A stretch of DNA of 10,524 nt, taken from UHGV virus genome UHGV-0053376; one strand, 5' to 3'. Below, piece after piece: positions 8,203 through 8,366 of this stretch. How positions within the stretch are numbered: the first letter of the stretch is position 1; each line of letters opens with the position of its first letter. The notes under the pieces were generated by a model. That model made no database searches. It was not told the DNA's origin and saw nothing but the letters and a program-made list of their open reading frames with translations. Made by a program: the position numbers and the translations under genes. This DNA is from a virus.

Positions 8203-8296
8203 GGATCATTAAGCCTGTCTCTGATAGGCTCATTCTGCTTTTGCGCAAAGCAGTGGGCCTGAGGTTTGCTTGTGAACCCAACGCATGAGCAGATGG

Positions 8297-8325
8297 CTGG
8301 TGGGTGCCCCTAACACCCACCAGCC
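8297..8325. repeat. Perfect 11-bp inverted repeat with 7-nt spacer in the methylase leader, carrying Chi (GCTGGTGG) on both strands
   Basis: gctggtgggtg 8297-8307, loop cccctaa, cacccaccagc 8315-8325. No U-tract follows on either strand, so it is not a classical terminator. GCTGGTGG at 8297-8304 and its complement at 8318-8325 are Chi octamers. Confidence 0.6.
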
Positions 8326-8342
8326 GCCCATTTACCACAAAT

Positions 8343-8366
8343 AAAAAAGCCTTCACTGCGGAAGGC
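8343..8366 (-). terminator. Intrinsic terminator overlapping the stop of the small winged-helix ORF
   Basis: Stem gccttc 8349-8354 / gaaggc 8361-8366 with a 6-nt loop. On the minus strand it is followed by U6 (complement of the A-run 8343-8348). Confidence 0.5.

Follow-up and report, generated by a model that had tools for sequence, protein, structure and literature searches.

The 10,524-nucleotide (nt) stretch of virus genome UHGV-0053376 analyzed here (the window) raises a simple question: why should the DNA directly in front of a methylase gene contain a perfect palindrome whose two arms each carry the Chi octamer, GCTGGTGG, one per strand? A preliminary description of the sequence had offered three answers: an operator for the adjacent winged-helix protein, an RNA structure controlling methylase translation, or an element that attenuates RecBCD. 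Comparison of homologous loci supports the second, in that the leader contains several covarying helices and an alternative pairing would sequester its only stretch complementary to 16S rRNA. Judged from this comparison, the palindrome is helix P1 of a structured leader RNA of about 125 nt, read on the methylase sense strand. We consider it reasonably probable that this leader is bistable and gates translation of an M.EcoGII-family methylase from the late-operon mRNA, the Chi pair being a by-product.

The inverted repeat is real and fully complementary (GGCTGGTGGGTG at 8295-8306, a 7-nt loop, and CACCCACCAGCC at 8314-8325; 100% complementarity), but at 12 bp it is one pair longer than the 11 bp first described. 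The exact octamer GCTGGTGG does occur once per strand in the arms, at 8296-8303 on the plus strand and 8317-8324 on the minus strand, each copy one nucleotide away from where it had been placed (8297 and 8318). The second, 7-bp hairpin at 8235-8253 (CTGCTTT/AAAGCAG, loop of 5 nt) is present as described, and the leader indeed lies between the small winged-helix open reading frame (ORF; 8550..8353, minus strand) and the methyltransferase gene (8202..7144, minus strand), in a gap of 150 nt. All genes of the window are on the minus strand. On the sense strand, P1 comprises the 5' arm GGCUGGUGGGUG (8325..8314), the loop UUAGGGG (8313..8307), and the 3' arm CACCCACCAGCC (8306..8295). The leader spans 8331..8203 (minus strand) and ends at the methylase AUG (8202), a position fixed across the 52 homologs described below. 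Its parts are as follows.

8326..8331, minus strand: region 1, AUGGGC, which pairs either as UGGGC with GCCCA (8258..8254) to give helix P0 or as AUGGGC with GCUCAU (8290..8285) to extend P1.
8295..8325, minus strand: helix P1, the palindrome; a perfect 12-bp inverted repeat, recovered independently by RNAalifold.
8317..8324, minus strand: sense Chi, on the strand of the late transcript and within the P1 5' arm; in 43 of 52 distinct leaders.
8296..8303, plus strand: antisense Chi, the complement of the P1 3' arm; allele-specific, being carried by 4 of 52 distinct leaders and, among the 80 closest viral contigs, by 35.
8265..8293, minus strand: helix P2, with 5' arm UCUGCU (8293..8288) and 3' arm AGCAAA (8270..8265).
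8254..8258, minus strand: 3' strand of P0, GCCCA, closing the P0/P1/P2 three-way junction (covariance alignment, RNAalifold).
8235..8253, minus strand: helix P3, the second hairpin, CUGCUUU GCGCA AAAGCAG; its core GCUUU/AAAGC is conserved and predicted by RNAalifold.
8211..8231, minus strand: helix P4, GAGCCU ... AGGCUU; 89.9% paired; its G.U pairs are confined to the sense strand.
8204..8215, minus strand: pre-start segment GGCUUAAUGAUC, which in the alternative fold pairs with 8277..8267 (GUUCACAAGCA).

To obtain homologs, 80 loci were fetched from one-genome-per-species contigs with the methylase protein as query; a covariance model was built, and 52 distinct leaders, ranging from Escherichia to Proteus, were aligned. 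With MAFFT alone, indels were misaligned and RNAalifold gave a partial structure; the covariance-model alignment was therefore used. Across the 52 leaders, the five-helix structure P0-P4 was 90.2% paired, compared with 32%-41% when partners were slid. Double changes occurred in 12 pairs, against 6.2 in shuffles, and 12 was reached in 0 of 500 shuffles. P1 was paired in 98.6% of cells, with compensatory change in 5 of its 11 pairs; P0 was 100% paired, with a single compensatory change from G-C to A-U. Consistent with these counts, RNAalifold, making its own prediction, independently recovered P0, P1, and P3. Within P2, column pair 57-83 varies widely (CG 24, AU 11, UA 7, UG 4) and pair 60-80 takes two forms (UA 42, CG 7); the loop of this helix, GUUCAC (GGUCAC or GAUCAC in relatives), resembles positions 1530-1535 of 16S rRNA, to which GAUCAC is identical. 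We regard the covariation support for a conserved leader structure, drawn from few independent lineages, as moderate. A pseudoknot judged by eye (GCUCAU:GUGAGC) was dropped, being not kept in Morganellaceae.

Conservation of the leader is high. Its mean pairwise identity is 0.87, the same as that of codon positions 1+2 in the catalytic domain of the methylase (0.87; position 3, 0.56). Hence strong purifying selection acts on the leader, at about the level seen for the amino-acid sequence of the enzyme.

The variation in P1 speaks for RNA rather than DNA. Its commonest form is imperfect (GGCUGG-U-GGGUG/CACCC-GG-CCAGCC, with a 1x2 internal loop), and the spacing of its outer halves, GGCTGG and CCAGCC, ranges from 18 to 20 nt across homologs; the interruption and the variable spacing together fit an RNA stem, not a rigid DNA operator. 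Changes are strand specific, with 15 G.U cells versus 6 A.C cells. A scan of viral contigs, which covers close relatives only (94%-98% identity) and serves allele counts rather than deep covariation, showed that among the 80 closest contigs the 3' arm is perfect, as in the window, in 35, reads CACUC in 29, and CACCUGCC in 10. The common variants (39 of 41 non-perfect alleles) differ from the perfect arm by C-to-T changes only, which keep G.U pairing on the sense strand; the O157:H7 allele is such a variant, and its antisense Chi is gone. In Providencia and Proteus (arms GACUGUAAAGGUG and GACAGUGAGGAUG), and likewise in Xenorhabdus, a stem stands at the same place and contains no Chi.

These observations bear directly on the proposed operator, according to which a dimer of the 65-amino-acid (aa) winged-helix protein would bind the double-stranded repeat and control methylase transcription in the way C-proteins do. 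Perfect palindromes are typical operators, the small winged-helix gene always precedes the element, and the changes in Providencia and Proteus also preserve symmetry at the DNA level. The succession of a small helix-turn-helix gene, an inverted repeat, and a methylase gene is likewise that of C-protein operators in restriction-modification systems, but here the spacing is variable, the changes are of the RNA type, and there is neither a predicted promoter nor a restriction gene. The outer half-sites are 18-20 bp apart and most homologs carry the asymmetric 1x2 interruption; the frequent changes are of the G.U type and break the DNA symmetry. Moreover, the repeat is nested within P0 and P2, an arrangement meaningful only as RNA. 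No sigma-70-like promoter was predicted in 7000-9700, a scan that is a weak test, and the Q-antiterminated transcript in which the leader lies (see below) gives an operator no obvious promoter to act on. A DNA operator is thus unlikely, and we give this explanation very little credence.

P1 shares with intrinsic terminators the form of a G+C-rich perfect hairpin in the transcript, and we considered it as one. It differs from them in being followed by AUCUGCUCAUG instead of a U run, and the terminator scan does not call it. Some of the Xenorhabdus counterparts of the hairpin have a U-rich tail.

Could the Chi octamers themselves be the reason for the palindrome? RecBCD recognizes any correctly oriented GCTGGTGG. 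By this account, Chi would switch RecBCD from degradation to recombination, and the palindrome would offer Chi to an enzyme arriving from either side. The window is certainly rich in the octamer. Seven sites had been counted; a further one at 1510-1517 (minus strand) was missed, and the eight divide as four on the plus and four on the minus strand. The density of 0.76 per kb is 3.5 times that of E. coli K-12 (0.217 per kb), which bears out the earlier estimate of about three times the E. coli average. Dinucleotide-preserving shuffles of the window contained 0.44 sites on average and 3 at most, with 8 reached in 0 of 200; the host density (1008 per 4.64 Mb in K-12) predicts 2.3 sites (Poisson P(>=8) = 0.0025, or P(>=7) = 0.009 with the palindrome counted as one event). 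Chi together with its complement is the most frequent octamer of the window. In related late regions, the density reaches 1.08 per kb with a sense-strand bias of 151:36. The complete genome of phage mEp460 has 16 sites on the top strand versus 4 on the bottom; 11 of the 16 lie in its last 11 kb, and Chi, dense in the right third of the genome, is entirely missing from 1.1-23.1 kb (22 kb of head and tail genes). In lambdoid phages that have no Rec module, Chi is known to build up toward the right end, in its active orientation (Zheng, Casjens, Davidson, Amundsen and Smith 2025, PMC12315714; Bobay et al. 2013, PMC3784561), and the mEp460 pattern agrees with this right-end clustering. The Chi richness of the window is a published property of some lambdoid phages and adds nothing beyond Zheng et al. 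2025.

Selection for Chi draws support from the density and sense bias of the related late regions, from the right-end gathering in mEp460, and from the presence of the same leader in phage LLS, which belongs to the published Chi-rich lambdoid class (PMC12315714). The sense Chi is found in 43 of 52 leaders, within a 5' arm that is unusually invariant. Like the LLS class, the window represents a right-end late region with high Chi density and Chi as top octamer, and its relatives show the published sense-strand bias. In contrast to that class, the window itself is split 4:4, with no excess of sites in the active orientation, and it is RNA pairing, not selection for Chi, that accounts for its palindromic pair. 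The antisense Chi, on which a two-way element depends, is present in only 4 of 52 leaders and has been lost repeatedly by C-to-T changes that leave RNA pairing intact. The 9 of 52 leaders that lack the sense Chi retain the hairpin, as do Xenorhabdus leaders with hairpins unrelated in sequence; across homologs, the stem stays where Chi is lost. Furthermore, Chi requires neither a partner arm, nor a fixed position before a gene, nor covarying flanking helices. We therefore find a two-way, RecBCD-attenuating element unsupported as the reason for the palindrome and rate selection for Chi as rather unlikely; Chi in the palindrome is incidental or secondary. The two octamers would simply follow from the chance reading of GCUGGUGG in the G-rich 5' arm and, in the window allele, from a 3' arm perfectly complementary to it. 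The sense Chi (8317-8324) is co-oriented with late transcription, the active orientation by analogy with PMC12315714, and the antisense copy is not. If RecBCD passes, the sense copy would act as Chi, which may add to the constraint on the 5' arm.

Two further observations concern Chi in relatives. In many of them (loci L009-L047 of our collection, at about 2192-2205, methylase codons about 231-235), the methylase gene contains CCACCAGCTGGTGG, a perfect 14-nt palindrome in which two Chi octamers of opposite orientation overlap; it is absent from the window. Two prophages without the methylase, PhiR5_1 (L093, about 1500-1560) and that of E. coli ATCC 25922 (L094, 1452-1543), match the window across the small ORF and the terminator and as far as the P1 5' arm with its Chi. 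The homology ends exactly at this arm, where a DUF3927 peptide is joined on by its C-terminal part (24 aa, Pfam E = 1e-7), and the mosaic junction abuts Chi; the corresponding junction in phage Stx2k lies just past P1.

If the palindrome is an RNA helix, what might the leader do? In individual minimum-energy folds, we repeatedly observed CGCUU-AC-UGAUC, immediately 5' of the AUG, paired with GRUCAC-AAGCG from the P2 loop and 3' arm. This helix, opposed to the ribosome-binding site (anti-RBS; 8277..8267 with 8215..8204), is 90.8% paired in the alignment versus 19%-41% when slid, and 4 of its 10 pairs show double changes; it can form only if P2 opens, and the P4 3' arm also participates in it. 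The P1 extension is 98.7% paired, and all of the one-sided changes within it (21 of 21) are compatible with pairing. By the alignment test and by constrained folding, the leader supports two mutually exclusive folds, A and B. When each was enforced, they differed by 2.8 kcal/mol on average, and B was lower in 36 of 52 leaders. In partition functions, the mean probability of pairing between the anti-motif and the six nucleotides 5' of the AUG was 0.56 (above 0.6 in 32 of 52 leaders).

In fold A, UGGGC:GCCCA pairing (P0) together with P2 would build the P0/P1/P2 three-way junction and leave the pre-start segment free. In fold B, AUGGGC:GCUCAU pairing would lengthen P1 and release the 3' side of P2, GRUCAC-AAGCG, which would then pair with CGCUU-AC-UGAUC directly 5' of the AUG. 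No GGAGG-like Shine-Dalgarno sequence was found before the methylase start. More than 40 of 52 leaders have UGAUCY:GGAUCA as their best duplex with the 3' tail of 16S rRNA within 22 nt of the AUG, and UGAUC (8208..8204, minus strand) is the sole good match to that tail at Shine-Dalgarno distance; its spacing is that expected for this part of an extended Shine-Dalgarno, near the 16S 3' end. A GATC, the Dam site, occurs at 8204-8207, 1-2 nt 5' of the methylase start, in nearly all leaders, and we interpret it as probably part of the UGAUC docking segment. Since UGAUC would be the only stretch at the right distance on which 16S rRNA could dock, fold B should block initiation, and we infer that it represses translation. 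Exposed in fold A and hidden in fold B, the docking site would thus constitute a translational gate, which would add to Q-dependent antitermination through two upstream terminators and whose product would be a methylase toxic if made at the wrong time.

Several points weigh against this gate. For the window's own leader, the equilibrium probability of pairing between the ribosome-binding site and the anti-motif is just 0.25. Many of the compensatory changes come from few lineages, mainly Morganellaceae, and represent few independent events; the covariance-model alignment is in addition biased toward the modelled structure. P0 and the P1 extension rely largely on invariant or one-sided variation, and the anti-RBS helix has 22 of 52 cells unpaired at one end and needs a bulge in the AGCUAA subtype. 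UGAUC is a putative docking site, named from its complementarity to 16S rRNA, and the folds and the gate are computational predictions throughout. Finally, conservation of the P1 5' arm exceeds the needs of a plain helix, which leaves room for a second constraint: Chi, a mini upstream ORF (uORF), or contact with a protein.

The uORF deserves attention because the AUG of region 1 (8331..8329, minus strand) could start one, 33 aa long in the window and in mEp460, in whose frame Chi reads GC-UGG-UGG, two Trp codons. The mechanism of ermC is well established, and an attenuator of the ermC or trp kind can be envisaged in which ribosomes starting at this AUG melt P1 and its extension, releasing region 2 for pairing with region 3 and opening the methylase start. 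All 52 leaders share the AUG, as does Photorhabdus, with GUGA or GGUGA 4-6 nt upstream; the residues MGGWW are conserved as well, a 7-codon MGGWWVL-stop frame is present in at least 19 leaders, and Photorhabdus has MDGWWS-stop. The pairing layout, 1:2 and 3:4 versus 2:3, matches that of ermC-type leaders, and a coding constraint would account for the extra invariance of the 5' arm. On the other hand, uORF length varies from 6 to 58 codons, with loop indels shifting the frame, and the peptide is unconserved past about six residues and unrelated in Providencia and Proteus. The AUG is missing from many Xenorhabdus leaders; it is base-paired in both folds, and its invariance is already explained by that pairing. 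We consider such attenuation distinctly improbable.

The similarity to ermC-type leaders, which precede an rRNA adenine methylase gene, nevertheless extends beyond the uORF starting in segment 1. In both cases a 5' leader stands directly before a methylase gene, and four segments pair as 1:2 and 3:4 versus 2:3, with the 3:4 helix hiding the ribosome-binding segment. The leader of the window differs in having no sequence or Rfam similarity to them, an unconserved peptide, and no known inducer; it has a long, stable P1 and an enclosing P0 three-way junction, which ermC leaders do not, and it would regulate a phage enzyme that methylates DNA and is encoded in a late operon dependent on Q. It may also be that the bistable leader is a true sensor, flipped from the occluded to the open fold by a factor bound at the P0/P1/P2 junction, whose joining nucleotides are invariant, or by ribosomes on the tandem-Trp mini-uORF overlapping Chi. 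We see this as a long shot. Candidate factors are the co-conserved 65-aa winged-helix protein, a small molecule such as S-adenosylmethionine or S-adenosylhomocysteine, and the methylase itself; M.EcoGII methylates adenines in RNA, which would allow autoregulation based on N6-methyladenosine. If true, the leader would represent a new class of regulatory RNA controlling a promiscuous phage methylase.

The genes around the leader show when it would be transcribed. By Rfam, Pfam, and BLAST matches, the window is a late region of a lambdoid prophage resembling Shiga toxin (Stx) phages, and the minus-strand transcript runs in the order Q, pR', terminator, small winged-helix ORF, terminator, leader, methylase.

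8777..9598, minus strand: Q antiterminator (Pfam family Antiterm).
8671..8749, minus strand: late promoter pR' and first terminator (alignment with lambda pR', terminator scan).
8679..8694, minus strand: first terminator with its U run (terminator scan).
8353..8550, minus strand: small winged-helix gene, 65 aa, directly upstream of the leader (weak TrmB match).
8340..8366, minus strand: terminator-like hairpin GCCUUC CGCAGU GAAGGC (8366..8349) followed by a U run (terminator scan).
7144..8202, minus strand: DNA methyltransferase, 352 aa, with DPPY ... FxGxG (Pfam N6_N4_Mtase, E = 1.5e-43).

Alignment with lambda pR' placed the -10 element, TAAATT, at 8749..8744, followed by AACGAUGGG/AACGATGGG. 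With pR' and the first terminator upstream, the leader is placed in the Q-dependent late transcript. The 65-aa protein belongs to a conserved family, named in source records as TrmB-family or DprA-like winged helix; in lambda, the place of the small ORF is taken by orf-64, to which it shows no similarity. The stop codon of the small ORF falls within the terminator-like hairpin at 8349-8366. Most relatives retain a stop-codon hairpin of differing sequence, whereas the ORF of Providencia and Proteus stops about 12 nt 5' of AUGGGC, and its translation could there be coupled to folding of the leader. A 60-aa ORF with a TTG start (8377..8195, minus strand), which spans the leader in the window allele and ends 5 nt into the methylase gene, is unlikely to be a gene, given the lack of a Pfam match and a frame that is broken in relatives. 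The leader's 5' flank (8330-8342) and the -10 region of pR' (8745-8757) share a 13-nt direct repeat on the sense strand, ATTTGTGGTAAAT/ATCTGTGGTAAAT; other alleles have GTGGAAAT or GTGAAAAT at this site, so the repeat may be due to chance.

Downstream of the methylase lie two tRNAs, an STnc100 homolog, a nanS-p-like esterase gene, lysis genes, and a csp gene. The match to the STnc100 small RNA family is full length (5919-6128, minus strand; 177.7 bits versus a gathering score of 47) and precedes the gene for the 662-aa nanS-p-like esterase, the site at which Stx phages carry stx. A match to the cspA thermoregulator 5' untranslated region followed by a cold-shock protein gene (307-691, minus strand; 114 bits versus a gathering score of 78) shows a csp gene to be part of the prophage. 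Further copies of the hairpin on either side of the methylase, the arrangement of a mobile cassette, were searched for, and none were found.

The leader is widespread. Of 5426 complete E. coli genomes, 2882 contain it, and it also occurs in phages of Shigella, Klebsiella, Citrobacter, Morganella, and Providencia, always between the small ORF and the methylase. The same module is found in mEp460, SfV, phiP27, Stx2 phages, and Klebsiella and Morganella phages. In E. coli the exact allele of the window is common (at least 819 records), and an identical leader was found in an E. albertii contig; phage 1720a-02 carries the leader at 95% identity. Among complete E. coli genomes, none spans the entire window at high identity, the best match extending over 79% of it at 95% identity. 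At the gathering threshold and at E <= 10, a search of 8150-8800 against Rfam returned no family (best P26, 24.2 bits versus 36, on the opposite strand). A full-text literature search with the arm sequences retrieved unrelated papers only, and a topic search (Stx, prophage, small RNA, methyltransferase, antiterminator) yielded none describing the leader; the published prophage small RNA svsR is unrelated to it. The element thus appears to belong to a known kind of regulator, the cis-acting structured leaders with alternative pairings, as a member not yet described.

The enzyme encoded behind this leader belongs to the M.EcoGII family, of which the 1720a-02 enzyme is a close homolog (PMC5778455). 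M.EcoGII methylates adenine in any context, is harmful when expressed constitutively, and is silent in lysogens; enzymes of this family are presumed to protect phage DNA from restriction (PMC5778455). Toxicity and silence in lysogens provide a rationale for gated translation, and a conserved bistable leader would be a concrete, testable answer to the question of how phages time such a methylase. The locus also cautions motif hunters that RNA pairing in a G-rich helix can produce a "two-way Chi palindrome" as a side effect. The underlying element is itself strongly conserved and very widespread, occurring in roughly half of complete E. coli genomes and also in Stx-converting phages, and it is attached to an enzyme whose control matters.

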